From Candidatus Adlerbacteria bacterium (GTDB taxonomy: Bacteria; Patescibacteriota; Minisyncoccia; Phycocordibacterales; SBAW01), in assembly GCA_903819895.1 (NCBI GenBank), contig CAIJFH010000027.1, forward strand, positions 1,675-65,674: a stretch of DNA of 64,000 nt, given 5' to 3'. The position numbers and the translations under genes were made by a program. Below the pieces are notes generated by a model, which saw only the letters and a program-made list of their open reading frames with translations, did not search any database and was not told the DNA's origin. Numbering within the stretch: position 1 is the stretch's first letter; every line of letters begins with the position of its first letter. This document shows, one piece after another, positions 10,165 to 62,994 of this stretch.

Positions 10165-12753
10165 ATGGCTGATAAAAATACAAAAAAAATTGAAGAATCG
10201 GCGCCAATGCCCGAGCGTGTGAACGTGATAGATCGCAACATTTCAACCGAGATGCGCGAGTCGTACCTCGATTACGCAATGTCGGTGATTACGACACGTG
10301 CGCTCCCCGATGTGCGCGATGGTTTGAAGCCCGTGCACCGCCGCATCCTCTACGCGATGCATCGCATGGGGCTCACCCCGGGCGCACGTTTTCGCAAGTC
10401 GGCGGCAGTGGTTGGTGATGTGCTGGGTAAGTACCATCCGCACGGCGATATTTCTGTATACGATGCAATGGTCAAGATGGCGCAAGAGTTCTCGATGCGC
10501 TACCCATTGGTTATTGGCCAAGGAAACTTCGGCTCAATCGACGGCGACTCGGCAGCAGCGATGCGCTACACCGAGGCAAAGATGTCGTCGATGGCGTCGC
10601 TCTTGTTGAACGATCTCGAGAAGGAGACCGTCGACTGGCGCCCCAACTACGACGGCACACTCAAAGAGCCCGAGGTGCTGCCCGCTGCGGTGCCAAATAT
10701 TTTGCTCAACGGTACACTCGGCATCGCCGTTGGTATGGCGACCTCTATCCCGCCACACAACCTCACCGAACTCACCAACGCGCTCACGCATTTGATAGAA
10801 AACCCCGATGCGACGGTCGAGGATTTGATGGAGCATGTCTCGGGCCCCGACTTCCCCACAGGCGCGGTCGCGTTTAATAAAAAGGATTTGCTGCACGCCT
10901 ACACCACCGGCAAGGGCGGCGTCGTGGTGCGCGGCCAGGCCGAAATTGTCGAGGATAAAAAAGGCAACTTCCAAATTATCATCACCTCCATCCCATACCG
11001 CGTCAACAAGTCCGACCTCATTGTCCGCATCGCCGATTTGGTGCGCGATAAAAAAATCGATGGCATCAGAGGGCTCCGCGATGAATCAACCCGCGACATC
11101 CGCGTCGTGGTCGACCTCAAGGTTGGTGCGCATCCACAAAAGGTGCTCAACTTTCTCTACAAGCACACGGCGCTCGAGGACACGTTCCACTTCAACATGG
11201 TCGTCTTGGTCGACGGCGTGCCGCAAACGCTGTCACTCAAAGGGATCCTCCAAGAGTTTATCAAGCACCGCAAGGTGATCGTGAAGCGTCGCACTGAGTA
11301 CGATTTGCGCAAAGCGCAAGAGCGCGAGCACATTTTGCTTGGCCTCACCAAAGCCCTCGATCATATCGACGAGGTGATCAAGACGATTCGCGCGTCCAAG
11401 GATGTGCCGGACGCAGCAGCCAACCTCATCAAAAAGTTTAAATTTTCCGACCTGCAAGCGGCAGCGATTTTGGAGATGCGCTTGTCGCGTCTTGCAAACC
11501 TCGAGCGCAAGAAGGTCGAAGACGAGTTAGCAGAAGTACAGGCGATGATCGCTGAGTGGACCGCGCTCTTGGGGAGTGAAAAGAAGATGCTCAGTGTCGT
11601 CAAAACAGAAATTGTCGCTGCGGGCGAGAAGTTTGGCGATGATCGCAACACCAAAGTCATTAAGGGTGCCGCAGGTATCATCAACGTCGAGGACTTGGTG
11701 CCCGAGGAGGAGCAGGTGCTCGTCCTCACCTCCGGCGGCTACGTCAAACGCACCAACCCCGAGGAGTACAAACGCCAAAAGCGCGGCGGCGTTGGTGTGA
11801 TTGACCTTGATACAAAGGAGGAGGATTTTGTCACCACGGTCCTCACCACCTCGAGCCACAGCGACCTGCTCTTTTTTACCGACCTTGGCAAAGCGTATCA
11901 AATCAAGATGTACGAGCTCCCCGAAGGGAAGCGTTCGACCAAAGGCAAGGCGATCGTCAACTTTTTGTCGATTGGTGACAACGAAAAGGTCACGAGTGTC
12001 TTGCCGATGCGCCTCTCTGCACACTCGACCAAGGGTAAAAAATCTGCCAAGGCGGATGGTGCGTCTGGCAAGGATGATGCTGCCGAGGGATCGCAGTCGC
12101 TGTACATGATCACCAAGTTGGGTGTCGCCAAGAAAGTTGATGCGACCGCGTTCCACGATGTGCGAAGATCGGGGCTCATCGCGATGCGGCTCGACGCAGG
12201 CGACCAGCTCATCGCAGCGCTGTTGGTGGGTAAGGGGGATGAAATTGTCCTCACCTCGCAGCGTGGGCAAGCGATCCGCTTTAAAGAAAGTGACATCCGC
12301 TCGATGGGTCGGACAGCCGGCGGCGTGCGCGGTATGAAGCTCGACAAAGACGATGTTATTGTCGGCGCCGATGTGGTGCGCCACGGCGACAAGGGGGCAG
12401 AGATCCTCGTCGTGACAAAGAATGGCTACGGCAAGACGACGCCTGCGAAAGAATATAAAACGCAGAATCGCGGCGGCTCGGGAATCAAGACGGTCAAAGT
12501 AACGCCAAAGACGGGGCAGCTGATCGCCGCGCGCGTGGTCTCAAAAGTTGGCGGCAATGCAAAGTCGTCTGGCAACGGCGACACGTCCGCCGACAACATC
12601 AACGACATGAGCGAGCTCGTCGTCGTCTCGCAAAAAGGCCAAGTGATCCGCACCGAGCTCTCCGAGATCCCATCCCTCTCGCGCGACACCCAAGGCGTCC
12701 GTATCATGAAACTCCGCGACGGCGACGCCATTGCGAGCTTTGTTTGTTTGTAA
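10165..12753 (+). CDS. gyrA: DNA gyrase subunit A
   Basis: [26 protein letters not shown], the catalytic Tyr region [11 protein letters not shown], GyrA-box and C-terminal beta-pinwheel repeats are present. The product is 862 aa. Confidence 0.95.
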
Positions 12754-12760
12754 AATCTTT

Positions 12761-13012
12761 ATGCTTGATAGAGAAAGTGACAATAAAATTATTGGTACAT
12801 TAGGTGCAACCAATACGAATCTCTTTCAAATACAGGGTACTCTTTCTAGTTTAGCGAGACAGTTTTCAGACTTAAACAAAAATCTGAGGGATTCGGCTGA
12901 ATCGTCCACAAAACTTACGAAAGCAATTAAAAACGTAACATTGTTTGGTGTCGGTGTCGCCGTTCTTTCTTTATGTTGGGATATTTACAAGACACTGTTT
13001 CTTCATGCCTAA
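12761..13012 (+). CDS. Hypothetical small protein with C-terminal TM helix, in AT-rich islet
   Basis: The ORF is AT-rich (about 38% GC against a host of about 58%). The product is MLDRESDNKIIGTLGATNTNLFQIQ...VTLFGVGVAVLSLCWDIY. Confidence 0.4.
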   Translation: MLDRESDNKIIGTLGATNTNLFQIQGTLSSLARQFSDLNKNLRDSAESSTKLTKAIKNVTLFGVGVAVLSLCWDIYKTLFLHA

Positions 13013-13020
13013 ATAGTCAT

Positions 13021-13302
13021 ATGAGGCAAGGACCAAAAAATATTTGTTCTCCACTGGAGCGTAAAACCCCCACACAATATTCAGGGCTGCAGCCAGATAG
13101 TGTAGATTTTCAGGAGTATTTTGATGCCTGGAGTTTGGAGGAACAGATAATGTGTGTGCGTTATGTAGAAAGAGATGCTTTTCGCTACGCATTTAAATTT
13201 GCGTTAGTTGTGGGCTTGATAATTGGTTTTTGCTTTGGCTTTCTTCTCGCTCAGAATCATTATTCTCGTGTGTTGATTGAGAAAGTCTTTGCTGGTCAGT
13301 AG
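13021..13302 (+). CDS. Hypothetical small membrane protein, AT-rich islet
   Basis: The product is MRQGPKNICSPLERK...FKFALVVGLIIGFCFGFLLAQNHY (C-terminal TM). It sits immediately upstream of the Fic/DOC gene. Confidence 0.35.
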   Translation: MRQGPKNICSPLERKTPTQYSGLQPDSVDFQEYFDAWSLEEQIMCVRYVERDAFRYAFKFALVVGLIIGFCFGFLLAQNHYSRVLIEKVFAGQ

Positions 13303-13408
13303 AAAATAGGTGCCAAGTATTTCTTCTGGCGCGTGTAGTAAGCAAGGCGTCGCCTTGCTAAAAAGCAAAAAAGCAAACCGTTGTCGAATTTTTTGCTATA
13401 CTTACGGT

Positions 13409-14392
13409 ATGGTACAGGCGAAGAAGAAAACAGGCGGGGTGGTGCTGTATCAGGCAAAGAACGGAGCGATTGAGCTGCGGGGTGATGCGTCACGCGAGAC
13501 GATTTGGGCGAACCGTATGCAGATGGCAGAAATCTTCGGCGTTAATCCACAGGCGATAACCAAGCATATCCAGCATATCTATGAGGAAAAAGAGTTGGAT
13601 CGAAAGGCAACTAGTTCCAAATTGGAACTAGTTCAAAACGAGTCTGGCAGAACAGTAAAACGACAGGTTGATATCTACAACTTGGACGTTATTATTGCTG
13701 TCGGCTATCGAATCAACTCGGTGATGGGGACAAACTTTCGCATCTGGGCGACCAAGACGCTGCGGGAGCATATTACAAAGGGGTACACCATCAACCGCAA
13801 GCAGATTGCCAAGAACTACGACGCGTTTATGAAAGTGGTTGGCGATGTGCAGGCGCTCTTGCCCGAGCATGTCGCACTCGACCCCAAAGGCGTGCTCGAA
13901 CTTATCAAAGAGTTTGCGGGCACGTGGGTGTCGCTCGACGCATACGACAAAGAGACACTCTCGACCAAAGGTGTCACCAAGAAGAGTGTGCGGCTTACTG
14001 GCGAGGAGTTGCGCACAGCGATTAGTGATCTCAAAAAAGAGTTGCTGCGCAAAGGCGAGGCAACAGAGCTCTGTGCTGCCGAGCGCGCGGCGGGGAGTGT
14101 CGAGGGAATTGTCGGCAACGTGATGCAATCCTTCGGCGGCAAGCCGGTTTACGCGACCGTCGAGGAGAAGGCAGCGCACCTCTTGTACTTTATGGTCAAA
14201 AATCATCCCTTTACCGACGGCAACAAGCGGTCGGGCGCTTTCGCGTTCGTGTGGTTCTTGCGAAAGACAGGCAGCCGTGGGAGCCGCAACATCAACCCAG
14301 CAGCGCTCACGGCACTGACATTACTTATTGCCGAAAGTAACCCGCACAAAAAAGATCAGATGGTCGCTCTGGTGACGCAGATGCTCAAATAG
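13409..14392 (+). CDS. Fic/DOC family protein with RhuM-like N-terminal domain
   Basis: The Fic motif HPFTDGNKRSGAFAFVWFL (HPFx[DE]GNxR) is present. The N-terminus (LYQAKNGAIELRGDASRETIWANRMQMAEIFGVNPQAITKHIQHIY) resembles virulence protein RhuM. The start is ATG 13409 (ORF from 13310). Confidence 0.75.
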   Translation: MVQAKKKTGGVVLYQAKNGAIELRGDASRETIWANRMQMAEIFGVNPQAITKHIQHIYEEKELDRKATSSKLELVQNESGRTVKRQVDIYNLDVIIAVGYRINSVMGTNFRIWATKTLREHITKGYTINRKQIAKNYDAFMKVVGDVQALLPEHVALDPKGVLELIKEFAGTWVSLDAYDKETLSTKGVTKKSVRLTGEELRTAISDLKKELLRKGEATELCAAERAAGSVEGIVGNVMQSFGGKPVYATVEEKAAHLLYFMVKNHPFTDGNKRSGAFAFVWFLRKTGSRGSRNINPAALTALTLLIAESNPHKKDQMVALVTQMLK

Positions 14393-15690: not shown

Positions 15691-15768
15691 CGCACCCTTA
15701 GCTCAGTTGGTAGAGCACACCCTTCACACGGGTGGGGTCGCAGGTTCGAGTCCTGCAGGGTGCACCAC
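15691..15768 (+). tRNA. tRNA-Val (anticodon CAC), CCA encoded
   Basis: The acceptor GCACCCT/AGGGTGC, D-arm GCTCAGTTGGTAGAGC, anticodon stem-loop CACCC-TTCACAC-GGGTG, T-arm GCAGGTTCGAGTCCTGC and a 3' ACCA are present. By my reading there are 2 extra nt between the D-stem and anticodon stem, possibly a transcription artefact of mine. Confidence 0.8.
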
Positions 15769-15914
15769 CCTGAGCAAGCAACCTGCGTTGCTTGCGTCAG
15801 GACGAGAAAGGCGGAGCATGTCGAGCCCAGCAGGGCGAGGCAGCGAGCCGGGGTCGCGGTCGAGGATGCGCGACGGCGCAGACGAGAACCGTGACCGAGT
15901 CGTTAGCAATAGTG

Positions 15915-15985
15915 CGGGCTGTAGTATACCGGTAGTACGCGCGCTTCGGGTGCGTGAAGACCGGGTTCGATTCCCGGCAGCCCGA
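15915..15985 (+). tRNA. tRNA-Pro (anticodon CGG), CCA not encoded
   Basis: The acceptor CGGGCTG/CAGCCCG, anticodon stem-loop CGCGC-TTCGGGT-GCGTG (G37) and T-arm CCGGGTTCGATTCCCGG are present. Confidence 0.75.
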
Positions 15986-16013
15986 CAAGTAGTGTAGAGT
16001 AAGTGAGACCGAG

Positions 16014-16055
16014 TTCGACCCGCCTGCCGGCGGGCAGGTTCCCGGCAGCCCGACA
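16014..16055 (+). terminator. Hairpin plus T-run after tRNA-Pro; contains second copy of tRNA-Pro 3' end (TTCCCGGCAGCCCGACA)
   Basis: The hairpin CTGCCGG-cgggcaggttc-CCGGCAG is followed by CCCGACAGAG and then TTTTTTT (16049-16055). Confidence 0.4.
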
Positions 16056-16102
16056 GAGTTTTTTTGTGTTACATTAATACGCGTGCCACATCGGCACGTT
16101 AG

Positions 16103-16173
16103 GGCCCATAGTTAAGTGGTAAAACGCTGCATTCGCATTGCAGAGGCGCGAGTCCGATTCTCGCTGGGTCCAC
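16103..16173 (+). tRNA. tRNA-Ala (anticodon CGC), G3:U70 present, CCA not encoded
   Basis: The acceptor GGGCCCA/TGGGTCC has a G3-U70 wobble. The anticodon stem-loop is CTGCA-TTCGCAT-TGCAG and the T-arm is GCGAGTCCGATTCTCGC. Confidence 0.8.
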
Positions 16174-16257
16174 AAATCATTGACAGATAAGAACATTCTG
16201 TTCTACATTGTTTGTAGACGATCTCCGACACAACCTCGCAAGAAAGGATTCTGCGTT

Positions 16258-17553
16258 ATGTACAGAGAGTTAAAGTCTCCTGTTGCGGTCCAACTGGAAC
16301 TAACGACAGGATGCAATGAAAGGTGCGTCCATTGCTACAACCACTGGAGAAGATCCTCCGAAGAAGACAGGACTTTGACCGAGGATGACGTCCGGCGAAT
16401 CATCGAGAACCTCAAGGATAGCGAAGTTCCAAACCTGCTCATCACAGGCGGAGAACCGATGCTCTACCCCGACCTATTGATCCGCACACTTGAACTTGGG
16501 AGGGAAGCTGGCCTCAAGTGCTCGCTGAACTCCAATTTGACGCTCGTGACGCCAGAGCTTGCTCGAGAGCTGAAAAGGCTCAAGGTCGGCATACTGACAT
16601 CGATCCTATCTTTTGACGAGAGACTGCACGATAAGCTCACAACCGTGCCTGGTTCCTTCGACATGCTCGTCAAGGGAATCAGGTTGGTCAGGGAATACGA
16701 AATCCCCGTTGGCGCGAACATGGTCGTGATGCAAATGAATGTGGACCAAATCTACGAGACGGGTAGGTTTATTCATAGCATGGGCGTGACTGCGTTTCGG
16801 GCAACGAAAGTACATCCCGCCCAAGGATCCCCATGCTTCGAGAGGATCAAGCTCCCTTCGGAACGCATTGTCGACATTTTCGACACCTTGATTAGGTTGC
16901 GGGATGAGCTCGGACTCGACGTCGATTCTCTGACTACCTACCCCACCTGCCTCCTCAAGGATATGAGCCGCTACGGCCAATTCGTCTCGAGAAGGAGCTG
17001 TAGCGCTGGAAAGACTGGCTGCACAATCGGCGCGGACGGACAAGTTCGCCCGTGCGGTCATTCCGACAACACCTACGGCAACTCTATTGTCGAGCCGCTT
17101 CTCGAAATCTGGCCTAGATTGCGGGAGTGGCGAGACGGCTCGCTGTTACCAACGGAATGCAAAGAATGCAAGCATGTTATTCAATGCAGCGGCGGCTGTC
17201 GTATGGATTGCAAGCACTACGGCAACATCAGTGGGATGGATCCATACGCCCCGGGCAAAGACTTCGCGTACACACCCCAACAACGAGAGGAGGTCACGCC
17301 TCTTGATCCTGAATCGGAGCTGGTCGTTAACTCGACCCTTCGCCTGAGAATCGAGACATTCGGCACAGCACTGATTGTCGATGGGAACTTCAAATCTATC
17401 GTCACCTCTGACACGGCCGAATTGTTGGAGCAGCTACGGAATGCAACTTTCACGCTCGGCTCAATCTCTGAGGAGTATGGTCTTGAGGTGGACATGCTGT
17501 GCAAGTTCTTTGCCAGCTTGCACGCCTTGAGAGTCGTCTACTTTGCCAGCTAG
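16258..17553 (+). CDS. Radical SAM enzyme with C-terminal SPASM domain (peptide-modifying or AnSME-like maturase)
   Basis: The ORF has a GGAG-type RBS (gaaagga). LELTTGCNERCVHCYN carries the CX3CX2C motif and LLITGGEPML the GGEP SAM-binding motif. A C-terminal Cys cluster (CSAGKTGCTIGADGQVRPCGH...CKECKHVIQCSGGCRMDC) matches SPASM. The start is ATG 16258 (ORF from 16138 overlaps tRNA-Ala). GC is lower than the flanking DNA. Confidence 0.85.
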   Translation: MYRELKSPVAVQLELTTGCNERCVHCYNHWRRSSEEDRTLTEDDVRRIIENLKDSEVPNLLITGGEPMLYPDLLIRTLELGREAGLKCSLNSNLTLVTPELARELKRLKVGILTSILSFDERLHDKLTTVPGSFDMLVKGIRLVREYEIPVGANMVVMQMNVDQIYETGRFIHSMGVTAFRATKVHPAQGSPCFERIKLPSERIVDIFDTLIRLRDELGLDVDSLTTYPTCLLKDMSRYGQFVSRRSCSAGKTGCTIGADGQVRPCGHSDNTYGNSIVEPLLEIWPRLREWRDGSLLPTECKECKHVIQCSGGCRMDCKHYGNISGMDPYAPGKDFAYTPQQREEVTPLDPESELVVNSTLRLRIETFGTALIVDGNFKSIVTSDTAELLEQLRNATFTLGSISEEYGLEVDMLCKFFASLHALRVVYFAS

Positions 17554-17881: not shown

Positions 17882-18730
17882 ATGAAAAAGATTATTTTAA
17901 AGGAGGATTTTGATGCAGAGATGCGTATTTTCCTTAATTTCTTGAACAGCAAAGAATATCCACAACATCGGAATATCATATTTTCTTGCTTCCCTGCATT
18001 GAAAGAAAAACTCGAGGCGAATGTCACAGATGAAAAATCGGTTGTTACGGCATTCATACAAGAGAAAAGGACACACAACGAACAAGCTATCCGGCAATCG
18101 GTTGCCTTTGTTAAGCATGAGCTAGAACAAAAAGGAGAGAAGACGTTAGAAATACTCGCCCAGCTGATGGATTATGTATGGGAATCTCAAGAGGATCCCT
18201 ACTTCTTGGTACCAACCATTTTCCCTCTGTCTCCCTTTAATAAGGATACATTCTTTTTCTCGATATACCCATCACTGCAAGGCAAAACAGAATATCCGAG
18301 AGTGCTGGCAGTTTCAGCTCACGAGATATCTCACATGATACTTCTCGACATCTTGAAAGAGCGAAACATACAGATGGGACAAGAACTGGTCTATTTTGTA
18401 AAAGAACTGATTGCTCCGGTGTTGGTATATCAAGATGATTTCGACGGTATGTTCAAGAAACAAATCGTGGGAAACTACAACGTGTTGGAGGTCTATTTTG
18501 AAGAAGGCGGAAAGTCGGTAACGGCTTTCGATTATTTTCTTGCTATGTTCGCAAATAACAGAGCTGAGGGCAAGAAATTCAATGCATTCCTCGATAATAT
18601 GATCTCTGTTTGTAGAAAAATAGAGCAGGAGATACAGGACAAGAGAGCGTTTGATGACGAATACGGCACACGAATACTAAAAGAGCCGGAACTACTGGAG
18701 AAATTTAGGGAGCCTATCGTGTTGATGTAA
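17882..18730 (+). CDS. HExxH-motif protein (putative zinc metallopeptidase), AT-rich gene
   Basis: The motif AVSAHEISHMILLDIL is present in the product. GC is about 38%, far below the host. No other recognisable domain is present. The gene is co-located with the rSAM/SPASM and peptide genes. Confidence 0.55.
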   Translation: MKKIILKEDFDAEMRIFLNFLNSKEYPQHRNIIFSCFPALKEKLEANVTDEKSVVTAFIQEKRTHNEQAIRQSVAFVKHELEQKGEKTLEILAQLMDYVWESQEDPYFLVPTIFPLSPFNKDTFFFSIYPSLQGKTEYPRVLAVSAHEISHMILLDILKERNIQMGQELVYFVKELIAPVLVYQDDFDGMFKKQIVGNYNVLEVYFEEGGKSVTAFDYFLAMFANNRAEGKKFNAFLDNMISVCRKIEQEIQDKRAFDDEYGTRILKEPELLEKFREPIVLM

Positions 18731-25342: not shown

Positions 25343-25363
25343 TACGGAGGACGGACCTCCGTA
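25343..25363. repeat. Palindromic intergenic hairpin family with core GGACGGACC (copy after atpD; other copies 4565-4587, 42713-42733, 43423-43441, 49526-49546, 60637-60655; degenerate 45184-45202, 61659-61679, 62172-62188)
   Basis: The form is TACGGA-GGACGGACC-TCCGTA. The arms co-vary (CTACATA/TATGTAG in two copies) while the 9-nt core is constant in either orientation. Confidence 0.7.
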
Positions 25364-42757: not shown

Positions 42758-43417
42758 ATGGAAATCGTATCAACCACTATGACCACCGAGGAACTGATAC
42801 AAATTGTCTGGGACTACCAGTTGATGCATCAAGAGTTGTGCAAGGCGGATGCTCTTGTCGTGCTCGGCAATCACGATGTCCAAGTTGCTGAGTATGCAGC
42901 CAAGCTCTATCTCGACGGATGGGCGCCGCTACTCGTCTTTTCGGGCGGGTCGGGGAGGTCAACCGAGCAGTGGCAAAAAACTGAGGCCGAGATATTTACC
43001 AACGCAGCTGTGCGACTTGGTGTGCCCGCGGAGAAGATCCTGCTCGAGCGTAAAGCCGCCAACACAGGCGAGAATATTTTGTTTACGAAGGCGCTACTTG
43101 AAGAGAAGCGCATCGAGGTGCGCCAGATTATCGTCGTACAAAAGCCCTACATGGAGCGTCGTTCGTATGCTACCTGCAAAAAGCTTTGGCCCGAGGTCGA
43201 CGTCGTGGTCACCTCGCCGCCGATAGCGTGCAAGGACTATGCGCCCGCGGGCGTGTCGCGCGACCAATGGGTGAGTATTATGGTCGGCGACCTTCAGCGC
43301 ATCAAACTCTATGCCGAAAAAGGATTTATGATCCCGCAAGAAATCCCCGCAGACGTCTGGGCAGCGTATGAGGAACTTGTCGCGCGCGGCTATGACGCAC
43401 ATGTACTAAAAGAGTAG
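42758..43417 (+). CDS. DUF218/YdcF-like (ElyC/SanA family) protein
   Basis: ALVVLGNHD...LVFSGG...GVPAEKILLERKAANTGEN is the YdcF signature. The start is ATG 42758 (ORF from 42644). Confidence 0.75.
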   Translation: MEIVSTTMTTEELIQIVWDYQLMHQELCKADALVVLGNHDVQVAEYAAKLYLDGWAPLLVFSGGSGRSTEQWQKTEAEIFTNAAVRLGVPAEKILLERKAANTGENILFTKALLEEKRIEVRQIIVVQKPYMERRSYATCKKLWPEVDVVVTSPPIACKDYAPAGVSRDQWVSIMVGDLQRIKLYAEKGFMIPQEIPADVWAAYEELVARGYDAHVLKE

Positions 43418-43488
43418 AGAATACGGAGGTCCGTCCTCCGTGGTGTGAGGAGGGTAGGAAAACTGGTGTATCGTGGTATACTGTTTGT

Positions 43489-43692
43489 ATGATTACTGCG
43501 GGATTTAAAAACGTCGTTTGGCGGGAAGGGGGGCAGTATGTTGCCCAGTCCTTAAACGTGGACGTATCAAGTTTTGGAAATACACGAACAGAGGCGCTGT
43601 CTAACCTCAAAGAGGCACTCGAGTTGTATTTTGAAGACGCTCCCGCTGGCGCTGCGTCTTCGGTCGAAGAGCCCGAGATTGTGTCCATCTAA
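43489..43692 (+). CDS. hicB: HicB-family antitoxin (UPF0150)
   Basis: GGQYVAQSLNVDVSSFGNTRTEALSNLKEALELYFED resembles the HicB N-terminal domain. Confidence 0.65.
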   Translation: MITAGFKNVVWREGGQYVAQSLNVDVSSFGNTRTEALSNLKEALELYFEDAPAGAASSVEEPEIVSI

Positions 43693-43696
43693 GTGT

Positions 43697-43909
43697 ATGT
43701 CGAGGTTGCACTCCTCAAACCATATTATTTCTGTGTTAGAGCAAAACGACTTCTATTTTGTTTCGCAAAAAGGAAGTCATGCAAAGTATCGCAAAGAAAG
43801 CAATGGCAAGACACTCACCGTCATTGTGCCAGTAGACAAAAAAGAAATCCCTCGCGGCACATTCCGATCAATATTGCGGCAATCGCAACTAACACCACAG
43901 GATTTTTAA
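43697..43909 (+). CDS. hicA: HicA-family mRNA interferase toxin
   Basis: QKGSHAKYRKESNGKTLTVIVPVDKKEIPRGTFRSILRQSQL matches the HicA (YcfA-like) motif. The ATG lies 5 nt after the hicB stop. Confidence 0.7.
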   Translation: MSRLHSSNHIISVLEQNDFYFVSQKGSHAKYRKESNGKTLTVIVPVDKKEIPRGTFRSILRQSQLTPQDF

Positions 43910-43917
43910 AAACTATT

Positions 43918-44358
43918 ATGAACCAGGACAAGAAGTTTGAGATACGCTGTCGCGGAGTGATTGTGCACGAGGGGAAGTTGCTTGTAGTCAAACACACACA
44001 TGACACCACGTTTGCCGCGCTCCCGGGCGGGCACTTGGAGTTTGGCGAGGATGTGCAGGAGTGCCTGCGACGCGAGCTGGTCGAGGAACTTGGTATCGAA
44101 CCCGAGATTGGACGATTGTTGTATGTCAACACATATATCGAGTCCTACGGCGCACAGCCAGTGGAGTTCTTCTTCGAGATTCTAAACGGCGACGCATATG
44201 CAAAAGGGAGCAATGTTGCAGCGACGCATGCACACGAGCTTGCGGCAGTTGTTTGGATGCACCCTTCCGACGACATCCTACTGCGCCCAACCCAGTTTGC
44301 CGATGACTTTCGCGCAGGGGAATTGTTTGCAGACGAAGTGCGGTATATCAAGAAGTAA
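43918..44358 (+). CDS. NUDIX hydrolase
   Basis: The Nudix box GGHLEFGEDVQECLRRELVEELGI is present. The start is ATG 43918 (ORF from 43693). Confidence 0.8.
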   Translation: MNQDKKFEIRCRGVIVHEGKLLVVKHTHDTTFAALPGGHLEFGEDVQECLRRELVEELGIEPEIGRLLYVNTYIESYGAQPVEFFFEILNGDAYAKGSNVAATHAHELAAVVWMHPSDDILLRPTQFADDFRAGELFADEVRYIKK

Positions 44359-44381
44359 GAAAATGAGCTCCCAATACTTTT

Positions 44382-45143
44382 ATGATTGGTGAAAGTCAGA
44401 CAGAAAAACACCTGTTAAATGAAATTTTGGCAGATTTTGTATTCTTTACAAATCCTGAGCTCATGAAAGATGAATTTCGCCTACTGGTCGATACTTCTTC
44501 CGCAGATATTTCCCAAATAGAGAAATACCGCACCCTTCTTTCAAATATCCAATATGCATGGCAGAAAACCTTGAAGTATAGCATTTATTTTGCAGAGTTT
44601 TATCCGCCAGAGTCTAGGATAGAAAAAATTGAGGCGCTGAATCACCACACACATGCATATTTGCAGGATGCTGATACTTTGAAAAACAAAATAGAAATCT
44701 TTTTACAAACACTCAAAAAGGATTTAACTAAAACTGCATTAAACAAAGATGACGTGCGAGATTTTGTTGATGCTGGGATAGAAAAAACATACGGAGTCTT
44801 CGAGAACATTCTTAAACATCGACACGCTCATGTCCACTATGGTATGCGTTTTGTGGATGGCGATTTACTTAAAGCTGAGAATGCTCAAGTGACTCTGGTG
44901 ATGTTTGAAAAACCACCTTTTAACTCAATGTTGAATCCAGATCGTAAACCTGAACTTGTTGCAAAACTAGAAAAACAAAAAGATGAGTCTTTTGAGGTTG
45001 CCAAGGTGCGCTGGGTATCGACCGCTCAGAGAAACGATGAACAGATATCTGGCTTTCTGCGCGCTCTCCTGTTTGCATTACGGCCCAGTTTCTATGAGTT
45101 TCTTGGCATTCGTTCTGTGAAAGAGTTAATTATCTCCGAATAG
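44382..45143 (+). CDS. Hypothetical AT-rich protein with HEPN-like Rx4HxH motif (KHRHAHVH)
   Basis: GC is about 38%. There is no clear family. The R-x4-H motif is consistent with a HEPN fold but weak. Confidence 0.45.
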   Translation: MIGESQTEKHLLNEILADFVFFTNPELMKDEFRLLVDTSSADISQIEKYRTLLSNIQYAWQKTLKYSIYFAEFYPPESRIEKIEALNHHTHAYLQDADTLKNKIEIFLQTLKKDLTKTALNKDDVRDFVDAGIEKTYGVFENILKHRHAHVHYGMRFVDGDLLKAENAQVTLVMFEKPPFNSMLNPDRKPELVAKLEKQKDESFEVAKVRWVSTAQRNDEQISGFLRALLFALRPSFYEFLGIRSVKELIISE

Positions 45144-45150
45144 AATGACA

Positions 45151-45171
45151 ATCCAAGGGTAACCCTTGGAT
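45151..45171. repeat. Palindromic intergenic element ATCCAAGGGTAACCCTTGGAT (copy 1 of 4; others at 45653-45673, 46538-46556, 62933-62952)
   Basis: The same 19-21 nt perfect palindrome (stem TCCAAGGG, loop TAA) recurs immediately 3' of stop codons. Confidence 0.7.
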
Positions 45172-45221
45172 TGTAGCGACCATGGATGTCCGTCCTCTGT
45201 AGAGTTTGCTATACTGCTGTT

Positions 45222-45650
45222 ATGGATGAAGAATATATGCGTCGTGCTATTGCGCAGGCGAAACAGTCCAAGCAATATATTGGCTGCGGCGTAGTGATAG
45301 TAAAAGACGGGCACATTCTCGCAGAGACATACAACAAACAAAAAGAGTCATGCGATGCCACTGCGCATGCGGAGATTTTAGCAATACGCGCTGCGGGTGG
45401 GCAGCTTGGGCAAAAAGATCTGGATGGTTGTACCGTCTACTGCACCTGCGAGCCATGCACGATGTGTCTGTCGGCAATCATCTTTGCAAAAGTTCCACGA
45501 CTGGTTTATGGCACCTCGATGCAGGAGACATTTCCCGATAACTTGCCAATTACGCTCACCAGCCAAGAGTTGCTCGCGCACGCGCCCCATCATATCGACA
45601 TTGTTTCAGGGTACTTGCACGACGAATGCGCGACATTGTTGAGCAAATAG
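45222..45650 (+). CDS. Cytidine/deoxycytidylate deaminase-family protein (TadA-like)
   Basis: HAEILAI and CEPCTMC zinc ligand motifs are present. The start is ATG 45222 (ORF from 45186). Confidence 0.8.
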   Translation: MDEEYMRRAIAQAKQSKQYIGCGVVIVKDGHILAETYNKQKESCDATAHAEILAIRAAGGQLGQKDLDGCTVYCTCEPCTMCLSAIIFAKVPRLVYGTSMQETFPDNLPITLTSQELLAHAPHHIDIVSGYLHDECATLLSK

Positions 45651-45701
45651 TCATCCAAGGGTAACCCTTGGATTGTGATAAAATACGCCCAGTTGTAGTA
45701 T

Positions 45702-62126: not shown

Positions 62127-62209
62127 ACTTCAAAGATACCACATATCCATATTGCGACTATATGTCCGTCCTCTGTGCCCCTCTATACCAACTCTTGTAT
62201 ACTAACTGC

Positions 62210-62929
62210 ATGGATGCCAAGGATGTGAAGATGGAGGAGTCATGGAAACGGCGGCTGGCGGGGGAGTTTGAGAAGCCGTACTTTGCCGAGCTGTCGGCGT
62301 TTGTGCGGCAGGAGTACAAAAACGAGGTGGTGTATCCGCCGCCGAAATATATCTTCCGCGCGTTTGACTTGTGCCCGTTCGAGCAGGTGCAGGTCGTGAT
62401 ACTCGGGCAGGATCCGTACCACGGGCCAAAGCAGGCAAACGGCTTGTGCTTCGCGGTCGACGAGGGGACGAAACTCCCGCCCTCGCTGCAAAATATTTTT
62501 AAAGAGATTGCGAGCGAGTATTCAGCAACAGCGTCGGGAGGTGAAACCTCCCAACAAACGAAAGAAGAGCGCGAGGCGCGTGCCCTGCGTAGCTTTAGCG
62601 AAGTAGGGGTGCAGGGCGTATTACTTTTAAATGCGACGCTCACGGTGCGTGCGCATATGGCGGGCTCGCATCAGGGCAAGGGCTGGGAGGAGTTTACCGA
62701 CGCGGCGGTTGCGGCGCTCTCGCAGGAGCGCGAGCATCTCGTCTTTATGCTGTGGGGCAACTACGCAAAAGCAAAAGGCGCACACATCGACCGCACGAAA
62801 CACCTCGTACTCGAAGCGGCGCACCCATCGCCATTCTCTGCCTACAACGGATTCTTCGGCTGCGGACATTTCAAAAAAGCCAACGACTATTTGGTCGCGC
62901 ATGGCAAAAAGCCGATTGATTGGCTGTAA
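62210..62929 (+). CDS. ung: Uracil-DNA glycosylase (family 1)
   Basis: VVILGQDPYHG, GVLLLN and HPSPF are present. The start is ATG 62210 (the ORF extension from 61949 overlaps the Nudix gene). Confidence 0.88.
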   Translation: MDAKDVKMEESWKRRLAGEFEKPYFAELSAFVRQEYKNEVVYPPPKYIFRAFDLCPFEQVQVVILGQDPYHGPKQANGLCFAVDEGTKLPPSLQNIFKEIASEYSATASGGETSQQTKEEREARALRSFSEVGVQGVLLLNATLTVRAHMAGSHQGKGWEEFTDAAVAALSQEREHLVFMLWGNYAKAKGAHIDRTKHLVLEAAHPSPFSAYNGFFGCGHFKKANDYLVAHGKKPIDWL

Positions 62930-62994
62930 CTCATCCAAGGGTAACCCTTGGACAGCCGCTTTTTATATAGAGAGTTCTTCGGTATACTGCCCAC

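Follow-up and report, generated by a model that had tools for sequence, protein, structure and literature searches.

Four adjacent genes of unlike composition

Within the 64-kb stretch of Candidatus Adlerbacteria DNA analysed here (hereafter, the window), four co-oriented open reading frames (ORFs) encode, in order, HicB, HicA, a Nudix hydrolase and a 253-aa protein, and the locus raises the question of whether these genes belong together and what the 253-aa protein might do. An earlier note on the same DNA had described them as one small defence or addiction islet, judging from composition and content, and had made a weak guess that the last protein is HEPN-like. The four ORFs, their spacing (hicB before hicA with 4 nt in between, then the Nudix gene after 8 nt) and the KHRHAHVH motif of the 253-aa protein were all found again, and the coordinates were confirmed (Table 1).

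Table 1. Positions in the window of the four genes and of the elements within and around them.
Feature	Position	Strand	Remarks
Hairpin, DUF218-hicB intergenic	43422..43442	+	8-bp stem UACGGAGG/CCUCCGUA, loop UCCGU; -12.7 kcal/mol
Extended -10-like TGgTATACT	43474..43482	+	Read from sequence; ends 6 nt upstream of the hicB ATG
hicB	43489..43692	+	67 aa; Pfam DUF7387, 33.1 bits (cut-off 27.9)
hicA	43697..43909	+	70 aa; preceded by 4-nt gap (43693-43696); PF07927, E 6.6e-17
Nudix hydrolase	43918..44358	+	146 aa; 8-nt gap after hicA; PF00293, E 8.8e-16
253-aa gene	44382..45143	+	23-nt gap after Nudix; all-alpha protein of an uncharacterised family
R147-H-A-H150-V-H152 codons	44820..44837	+	Rx4H motif, putative catalytic site
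Perfect palindrome	45148..45174	.	13-bp stem, shortly past the 253-aa stop codon; region -24 kcal/mol, z -3.3
Degenerate GTCCGTCCTC hairpin-motif copy	45181..45204	+	Precedes the deaminase gene; 76% identity over 33 nt to 43414-43446

The GC contents of the four genes are 50.5% (hicB), 41.3% (hicA), 53.5% (Nudix) and 38.6% (253-aa gene), and that of the whole window is 54.9%, with a standard deviation of 3.9% across windows of equal size. The value for the 253-aa gene (GC3 35.8%), which agrees with the figure of about 38% proposed before, is the minimum among all 762-nt windows of the 64 kb, and the Nudix gene (GC3 63%) has the native composition. hicA and the 253-aa gene are compositionally foreign; inclusion of the Nudix gene in an islet is not supported, since it has native GC and its orthologues have housekeeping neighbours.

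When conservation of the four-gene block was checked across genomes, the block was found in no other locus examined. None of the approximately 31 loci of the 253-aa family carried HicAB or Nudix, none of the 10 loci of Nudix orthologues carried HicAB or a 253-aa-type gene, and neither Nudix nor a 253-aa-type gene was present in the four other hicBA contexts. These counts speak against a single four-gene islet: the four genes are a mosaic and not a conserved unit. For an empty-site comparison, the genome collection contained no relative above approximately 60% protein identity. Synteny with relatives is lost except for the DUF218-Nudix pair, which is kept at one (L014) of the 10 orthologous loci. 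We consider it probable that the mosaic comprises a mobile hicB-hicA pair, a resident Nudix gene and an acquired gene for a divergent HEPN-type RNase, lying between two copies of a genome-wide hairpin.

The hicB-hicA cassette

HicA scored 61.8 bits against PF07927 (cut-off 27), with 56 of the 58 profile positions covered, and resembles the solved HicA structures 1whz, 4c26 and 6g26 of the PDB. Its K25-G-S-H28 segment aligned with KGGH of 1whz, and H28 (G-x-H) is presumably the catalytic histidine. The hicA gene is absent from the public gene calls for the contig. The 67-aa HicB has 861 homologues, several of which are named HicB family antitoxin; homologues that are 73-81% identical carry the source names (including those of NCBI) "type II toxin-antitoxin system HicB family antitoxin" or "RNase H-like HicB family nuclease". 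A solved HicB (9svk) matched the 67-aa protein weakly across the FGN..EA..NL.E motif, and the last 17 residues form a low-complexity acidic tail.

A hicB-then-hicA pair with 71-88% identity was found in four other, unrelated Patescibacteria contexts, among them between SecG and GroES, beside RibD_C and beside a ParE/Phd pair. hicA was always the next gene, and the GC content of hicBA was below that of the flanks in each context. As judged from sequence, the hicB-hicA pair is a genuine toxin-antitoxin module of type II and a self-contained mobile cassette, in which HicA would act as a small toxin cleaving RNA via the conserved histidine and the 67-aa HicB would neutralise HicA through direct binding. 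The pair shares with E. coli HicAB, Yersinia pestis HicA3B3 and Burkholderia HicAB the small HicA with a dsRBD-like HicA_toxin domain and the G-x-H histidine, as well as the adjoining small partner of HicB fold and the arrangement as a two-gene cassette amid unrelated genes. It differs from the studied systems in that the antitoxin gene comes first and in that HicB is only 67 aa long, with no hit to a DNA-binding domain such as the C-terminal RHH/HTH domain of those systems; any autoregulation would consequently differ from that of long HicB proteins.

A resident Nudix gene

The Nudix protein scored 58.6 bits against PF00293 (cut-off 21.1) and contains a complete Nudix box, G38-HLEFG-E44-DVQECLR-R52-E53-L-V-E56-E57-L-G59-I60. 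In this box, its single domain and its length of approximately 146 aa it is like the MutT-type Nudix hydrolases (PF00293), from which it differs in having no equivalog-level assignment; its best NCBIfam similarities, to MutT and to pyrimidine (d)NTP pyrophosphatases, were all far below the cut-offs. Orthologues with 48-63% identity are present in 10 Parcubacteria genomes, where their GC content follows that of each host and their neighbours are housekeeping genes, such as those for KhpA, TrmD, CYTH and glyoxalase proteins. The Nudix gene is a native gene of housekeeping type, located outside any mobile unit, and its product may be a resident housekeeping pyrophosphohydrolase whose gene lies by chance beside the insertion. 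A function as a defence gene, suggested by a match to the PADLOC candidate PDC-S07, was rejected, because the housekeeping neighbours of the orthologues identify this match as generic Nudix similarity.

Intergenic elements and the boundaries of the region

The core motif of the hairpin upstream of hicB occurs in 12 copies in the window against 3.0 expected, with compensatory variants in the stems. This hairpin is a copy of a genome-wide motif and not an insertion boundary. Together with the degenerate copy downstream it flanks the four genes, and the 33-nt direct repeat thus formed was considered as an att site or target duplication and rejected, because its core is the same genome-wide hairpin. 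tRNA-linked integration was also rejected, the only tRNAs of the window being located at 15.7-16.2 kb.

The extended -10-like element is a possible promoter, whose hicBA transcript would have little or no leader. The same TATACT-N6-ATG layout was observed at the deaminase gene and after the copy of the hairpin motif at 62164, and a generic sigma-70 scan did not call the element at 43474. The palindrome behind the 253-aa gene is likely to be a bidirectional terminator or insulator, and its 24-nt sequence was found again downstream of the deaminase gene.

These elements bear on the alternative that the four genes were acquired together and work as one functional islet, in which, for example, the Nudix protein would degrade a nucleotide signal or an RNA cap controlling a HEPN-like effector and HicBA would stabilise the islet. 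The genes are co-oriented and closely spaced (4, 8 and 23 nt), they are surrounded by two copies of the hairpin motif and a strong palindrome, the sole obvious promoter-like element precedes hicB, and the Nudix protein matches PDC-S07 with an E value of 5e-12. We nevertheless regard this alternative as very unlikely, given that the genes co-occur at none of the other 253-aa-family, Nudix or hicBA loci, that GC content changes sharply from gene to gene, that the hairpin on both sides is a genome-wide motif and that the PDC-S07 score does not exceed that of a generic Nudix match.

A conserved Rx4H motif in the family of the 253-aa protein

The composition of the 253-aa gene sets it apart from the rest of the window, and its product was compared with 67 close and approximately 163 clustered relatives, which so far come only from Patescibacteria and uncultured samples. 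The protein contains the sequence K145-H-R147-H-A-H150-V-H152 (KHRHAHVH), encoded at 44814-44837. Since a single Rx4H in one protein may arise by chance and is uninformative, it is the invariance of the motif across the family that counts. R147, H150 and H152 are invariant among 30 close relatives (alignment A1) and, in an alignment of 44 sequences with 14-25% identity, are present in 43, 43 and 44, respectively. The only other column that is at least 90% conserved among these 44 distant relatives is column 98, where the consensus is Y and the window protein has D, so that R147, H150 and H152 are the only near-invariant residues common to the window protein and its distant relatives. A second, word-indexed search for homologues with the distant alignment again returned the close clade only.

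In HEPN domains, a polar residue (N, D or H) directly follows the motif Arg (PMC3710099). At this position the window protein has H148, and 23 of the 30 A1 sequences have D, N or H; G, D, S or N is frequent in the distant clade, where this feature is therefore only partly valid. Among acidic positions, E84 (E-x3-H88) and D96 are invariant in the close clade, and [DE]96 and E102-R103 are found in the wider family. No clean instance of the canonical second HEPN motif, Ex3[KR], was observed in either. This uncharacterised family is represented in the window by the 253-aa gene, a solitary copy gained by horizontal transfer.

Predicted structure and profile searches

The AlphaFold2 (AF2) model of the 253-aa protein is all-alpha (pLDDT 90.4, pTM 0.86), with helices at 82-118, 122-153 and 160-176. 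The motif (147-152) occupies the C-terminal end of helix 122-153 and is followed by the loop 154-159, an arrangement that in the model resembles that of HEPN RNases, where the motif stands at a helix end running into a loop (PMC3710099). From the register of the helical hairpin, H88 and H89 would lie near the motif on the facing helix.

As the earlier note had stated, the protein belongs to no obvious family: neither it nor its nearest relatives were matched, at E values up to 10, by the curated profiles of Pfam (including PF18730), NCBIfam, PADLOC (including ApeA) and PHROGs. Profile searches of PDB sequences for the family gave no match, and fold searches with the model returned generic helical bundles only. 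In three relatives, the Pfam model HEPN_Apea matched below threshold across the stretch containing the motif, the best E value being 5.4e-5; the distant member with this value was not among the ten members that were re-scanned. A homologue with 59% identity (P0003) bears the UniRef name "Cthe-2314-like HEPN domain-containing protein". This label was not confirmed: PF18730, taken to be part of the Pfam copy scanned, matched neither the window protein nor any of 83 relatives, including P0003 at E values up to 10, and cluster look-ups gave no further names. Cthe_2314 is not mentioned in the supplement of Anantharaman et al. 2013.

Association of the family with type I restriction-modification operons

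In 9 of approximately 31 non-redundant loci, the gene of the 253-aa family stands within a type I restriction-modification (R-M) operon, with hsdM on one side and hsdS on the other, often with 4-nt overlaps at the junctions, and in three of these 9 loci hsdR lies downstream of hsdS. The cargo of those operons includes Abi_alpha, NYN, PBECR3, AbiJ_NTD4 and Schlafen AlbA_2, and one further locus lies near HEPN_AbiV. Approximately two thirds of the family loci have no R-M neighbours, and the window likewise contains no R-M genes. A phage origin of the 253-aa gene was considered and rejected, as no relatives were found in 2.9 million viral contigs and neither a BFVD fold match nor a PHROG match was obtained.

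The invariance of the motif, its position in the model and the embedding in type I R-M operons make the HEPN and defence reading stronger than the earlier note had supposed, and on the basis of sequence and model the 253-aa protein is predicted to be a HEPN-like RNase and a defence effector. This reading is unproven, in that the fold searches were generic and the curated HEPN profiles did not match the window protein; the guess of a HEPN domain has thus gained in plausibility, and a confident HEPN assignment was not reached. The combination that was expected to speak against it, a confident non-HEPN assignment for the protein and a block that is core genome with even GC, was not observed. We tentatively suggest, as a possibility deserving serious attention, that the family is an unnamed, highly divergent HEPN clade, so far encountered only in candidate-phyla-radiation bacteria and uncultured samples, comprising minimal, sensor-less second-line RNases that are either encoded in type I R-M operons between hsdM and hsdS, with PrrC logic but no ATPase, or solitary.

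The same conservation and context could be read differently, with the 253-aa protein being no nuclease and instead a metal-binding four-helix bundle (hemerythrin-, DinB- or di-metal-like) or an accessory R-M subunit, which might modulate the assembly of HsdM and HsdS or sense redox state or metal. E84, H88, H89, D96, H150, H152, D159, E166 and E202 are all invariant in the close clade, as would suit a metal site, and the tight operon coupling between hsdM and hsdS would suit a subunit. In the wider family, however, the full ligand set is not conserved, H89 being kept in 36 of 44 sequences and H88 being mostly replaced by Tyr, and an invariant Arg four residues ahead of an invariant His is the signature of HEPN and not of hemerythrin. 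A cargo effector is also a better fit than a subunit to a family of which about two thirds of the loci are solitary or lie beside unrelated mobile or Abi genes. We consider a non-nuclease function unlikely.

That the window copy is a decaying, functionless remnant, a hitch-hiker left behind by a type I R-M island that was lost, would agree with the lack of R-M genes in the 64-kb window and with the strongly unameliorated GC content. We judge this highly improbable, because the ORF is full-length and retains every family-invariant residue, and because the protein is identical across several independent assemblies, including a strain at only 99.5% DNA identity.

Comparison with known HEPN systems and a proposed mechanism

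Returning to the HEPN reading, the 253-aa family is like PrrC/EcoprrI, RloC, Abi2/AbiD/AbiF and ApeA (PMC3710099) in having Rx4H at a helix end, an all-alpha structure and a polar residue after the Arg. As in R-M-embedded HEPN nucleases, its members occur within type I R-M operons and beside Abi genes, with a patchy, horizontally transferred distribution; the window copy differs in being solitary, without an R-M partner. In contrast to PrrC and RloC, the protein has only about 250 aa and neither an ABC-ATPase nor another sensor domain, and in contrast to these HEPN nucleases it has an extra invariant His (R-x2-H-x-H) and lacks a clear Ex3[KR]. ApeA is a single-gene HEPN effector that cleaves tRNA anticodon loops upon a small-molecule cue (bioRxiv 10.64898/2026.01.26.701840). 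Among curated HEPN models, HEPN_Apea alone matches the 253-aa family recurrently; these matches are weak and below threshold, and the ApeA model of PADLOC gives none. The Cthe_2314 family (PF18730) is bacterial and stand-alone, with a conserved Rx4-6H and no gene-neighbourhood signal (Anantharaman et al. 2013), whereas the 253-aa family is strongly associated with type I R-M.

On these grounds, we propose that the 253-aa family may be a divergent, metal-independent RNase of HEPN type. Its active site, at the end of helix 3, would be formed by R147 and H152 (Rx4H) with H150 and the H88/H89 cluster in a supporting role, and dimerisation would probably complete it, if other HEPN enzymes are a guide. 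The enzyme would be silent until a phage cue is received, whereupon tRNA or mRNA would be cut and the infection aborted. Translational coupling between hsdM and hsdS in the relatives suggests a second-line effector, which might fire once restriction has been defeated, following a logic like that of PrrC. Gene content, composition, motif conservation across the family, the predicted all-helical fold with the place of the motif in it, and the genomic associations come from the analysis itself; the RNase chemistry, the dimerisation, the trigger and the role in abortive infection are all things that we infer. No mechanism that would restrain a solitary toxic RNase is visible in the window.

Patescibacteria are often called poor in known defence systems. 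The 253-aa family is invisible to PADLOC, Pfam, NCBIfam and PHROGs, although in these bacteria it travels repeatedly with type I R-M systems as an operon-coupled passenger. If the HEPN reading is true, a compact single-gene effector would be added to the R-M-linked abortive-infection repertoire, and episymbionts with tiny genomes would possess a layer of abortive infection hidden from current defence finders. HicBA and the Nudix protein are ordinary by comparison, and the main practical lesson they offer is that automated gene calling overlooks hicA in these genomes.

Composition and conservation of the four-gene block

Re-reading of the sequence gave the same positions for all four open reading frames (ORFs) as an earlier note, which had described them as a possible small defence or addiction islet. 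The 253-aa gene was the lowest-GC stretch in the whole 64 kb, with 38.6% GC (GC3, 35.8%) against 54.9% for the window (sd 3.9% in same-length windows). The other values were 41.3% for hicA, 50.5% for hicB and 53.5% for the Nudix gene, the GC3 of which (63%) was similar to that of its neighbours. HicAB, Nudix and 253-aa-family genes were never neighbours in the compared loci, so that conservation of the block across genomes was not observed. This zero co-occurrence and the stepwise GC values contradict the reading as a single islet. The block is a mosaic in which a native Nudix gene lies between a mobile hicBA cassette and a solitary member of an unnamed family that was acquired separately. The overall observation was confirmed and its interpretation stood in part: the islet reading was dropped, and the HEPN-like reading of the 253-aa gene was retained with moderate confidence.

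Features of the window (positions in nt)
Feature	Position	Strand	Remarks
hicB-like ORF	43489-43692	+	67 aa
hicA	43697-43909	+	70 aa; 4-nt gap from hicB
Nudix gene	43918-44358	+	146 aa; 8-nt gap from hicA
253-aa ORF	44382-45143	+	23-nt gap from Nudix gene
K145-H-R147-H-A-H150-V-H152	44814-44837	+	coding sequence, 253-aa protein
Deaminase gene	45222-45650		cytidine/tRNA-adenosine deaminase-like
Hairpin copies	4570, 25347, 42715, 60640	-	
Hairpin copies	43429, 45188, 49533, 61666, 62164	+	
Palindrome, 13-bp stem	45148-45174		perfect; 3' of 253-aa gene stop codon
ATCCAAGGGTAACCCTTGGAT copies	45151-45174, 45653-45676, about 62937-62957		identical
TATACT, hicB	43474-43491		
TATACT, deaminase gene	45207-45224		
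TATACT, gene after 62164 hairpin	about 62195-62212		
Stretch with two small orphan ORFs	12731-13302		~40% GC
RhuM-Fic/DOC fusion gene	13310-14392	+	PF13310, E 6e-22; PF02661, E 5e-11
tRNA-Val/Pro/Ala cluster	15692-16173		
Radical SAM/SPASM gene	16138-17553		
282-aa orphan ORF	17882-18730	+	~39% GC

The hicBA cassette and the Nudix gene

The assignment of the first two genes to HicB and HicA was borne out. HicA matched PF07927 with 61.8 bits (cut-off, 27; E 6.6e-17) and was matched by the solved HicA proteins 1whz, 4c26 and 6g26, with the histidine of G-S-H28 aligned. The 67-aa protein passed the cut-off of Pfam DUF7387 (33.1 versus 27.9 bits), and a solved HicB matched it weakly. Most of its 861 homologues were also 67 aa long, and their names included "type II toxin-antitoxin system HicB family antitoxin" (several, NCBI) and "RNase H-like HicB family nuclease" (JGI). 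Canonical HicB carries a DNA-binding domain, for which the 67-aa protein is too short. The pair recurred in the order hicB-hicA, at 71-88% identity, at four unrelated places: with SecG/GroES, with RibD_C, next to a ParE/Phd pair, and at a form of the latter site without ParE/Phd. Its GC was below that of the surrounding locus in all three loci measured, which marks hicBA as a mobile cassette of two genes, of an ordinary kind. On the window contig and on a related one (L089/L090, 3306-3515), hicA is absent from the public gene calls; given the E value of the HicA_toxin match, HicA is under-reported by automated annotation in these genomes.

The Nudix protein matched PF00293 (E 8.8e-16) with a complete Nudix box, and its orthologues were found in ten Parcubacteria/Paceibacteria genomes at 48-63% identity, none with HicAB or a 253-aa-family gene nearby. 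The GC of the orthologues tracked each host genome, and their adjoining genes with a Pfam match encoded KhpA, TrmD, CYTH, glyoxalase, HAD and Na/Ca exchanger proteins. A match to PADLOC PDC-S07, considered as a sign of a defence gene, was no better than generic Nudix similarity. We conclude that the Nudix gene is a resident with a housekeeping role, and that insertion placed hicBA between it and the upstream DUF218 gene; both parts of the block are ordinary. The DUF218 gene was kept at only one of the ten orthologue loci (L014), where a different 650-nt filler separates it from the Nudix gene. There, the space taken by hicBA in the window contains an opposite-strand ORF of 199 aa and unknown family (L014, 5344-5997), which suggests that insertions recur at the DUF218-Nudix intergenic site.

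The 253-aa protein as a predicted HEPN-type effector

The 253-aa protein had no match in Pfam, NCBIfam, PADLOC or PHROGs, consistent with its earlier description as belonging to no obvious family, and a profile of its relatives found no match among PDB sequences. Its 67 close relatives (42-60% identity) were, where taxon-named, all from Patescibacteria-type MAGs (WS5, Colwellbacteria, Magasanikbacteria or "Patescibacteria group"), and an exhaustive profile search (E up to 1e-3) yielded only 163 clusters. Invariant residues in the close clade included R147, H150, H152, E84, H88, H89, D96, K101-K103, D159 and E166. Among 44 sequences aligned at 14-25% identity, conservation of ≥90% was confined to R147 (43/44), H150 (43/44), H152 (44/44) and a tyrosine column; 36 sequences retained H89. 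A lone Rx4H in a single sequence would be expected by chance; that of the 253-aa family goes beyond chance, because almost nothing else has stayed constant across this very divergent group.

The AlphaFold2 model was confident (pLDDT, 90.4; pTM, 0.86) and all-helical, and placed Rx4H at the C-terminal end of helix 122-153, followed by a loop (154-159). The three statements of a survey of HEPN proteins, all-alpha RNases with an Rx4-6H motif, including that these proteins fold as a four-helix up-down bundle and that the residue after the motif arginine is usually N, D or H (PMC3710099), agree with the alignment and with this model. Judged by the register of the hairpin that helices 82-118 and 122-153 form, the H88/H89 cluster should face the motif. 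Sub-threshold matches to Pfam HEPN_Apea covered the motif-bearing stretch in three relatives (best E 5.4e-5). A 59%-identical homologue is named "Cthe-2314-like HEPN domain-containing protein" in UniRef; it had no Pfam match even at E up to 10, and the label is therefore a lead, not a test.

In about 31 non-redundant loci sampled, HicAB or Nudix was never a neighbour of the family. The family gene was directly upstream of hsdS in nine and, where the contig extended upstream, also downstream of hsdM, within a type I restriction-modification (R-M) operon in which start and stop codons often overlapped by 4 nt; hsdR followed hsdS in three of the nine. These operons also held genes for Abi_alpha, NYN, PBECR3 plus UvrD helicase, AbiJ_NTD4 or Schlafen AlbA_2. 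At other loci, the neighbours were a ParB-methylase together with ImmA/HTH genes, an FtsK-type ATPase, a HEPN_AbiV protein or simply housekeeping genes. No R-M genes were present in the 64-kb window, and no relatives were found on 2.9 million viral contigs. PrrC, RloC, Abi2 and ApeA are listed as embedded in R-M operons (PMC3710099), a setting shared with part of the 253-aa family, and ApeA is a ligand-activated anticodon nuclease (bioRxiv 10.64898/2026.01.26.701840). By this analogy, the family most plausibly represents divergent HEPN-type RNases, predicted to act as defence effectors; we infer all of its chemistry, oligomeric state, trigger and restraint of self-toxicity. The literature searched held no description of its type I R-M association, and we predict with moderate confidence that the gene encodes a new, unannotated HEPN-like R-M-associated effector. 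Metagenomic type I R-M operons with varied cargo among hsdM, hsdS and hsdR were seen at L012, L047, L048, L049, L053, L054, L055, L063 and L078, the cargo comprising the 253-aa family, the accessory genes named for these operons and several unannotated 160-320-aa proteins.

Repeats and other foreign-looking genes

A 33-nt imperfect direct repeat bracketing the four genes was rejected as an insertion scar: the window contains 12 copies of its core, GTCCGTCCTC, where 3.0 would be expected. The core folds as an 8-bp hairpin; its UCCGU loop is conserved, and its stem shows compensatory variants (ACGGAGG/CCUCCGU versus ACAUAGG/CCUAUGU). The hairpin family is genome-wide and intergenic and had no match in Rfam; its 8-bp stem is UACGGAGG/CCUCCGUA or, in doubly compensated form, UACAUAGG/CCUAUGUA. 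At least five copies (4570, 43429, 45188, 49533 and 62164) precede the next ATG by 16-51 nt, and no start codon is near those at 25347, 60640 and 61666; the family could serve as an operator bound by a protein or as a terminator/insulator. The palindrome after the 253-aa gene is repeated after the next gene, so that two ATCCAAGGGTAACCCTTGGAT copies flank the deaminase gene; in form it resembles a bidirectional terminator or a REP-like element. TATACT, accompanied at some sites by an upstream TG, stands 6 nt before several ATGs and was not called by a generic sigma-70 scan; judged from this placement, the organism may produce leaderless or near-leaderless transcripts.

The RhuM-Fic/DOC region, which closely follows a large gene resembling gyrA in translation and is preceded by the stretch with two orphan ORFs, is another conflict-type insertion. 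An orphan ORF of 282 aa without a Pfam match occupies the stretch with the second-lowest GC of the window. It lies directly after the radical SAM/SPASM gene and the tRNA cluster, and may be part of a peptide-modification cassette or another foreign gene.
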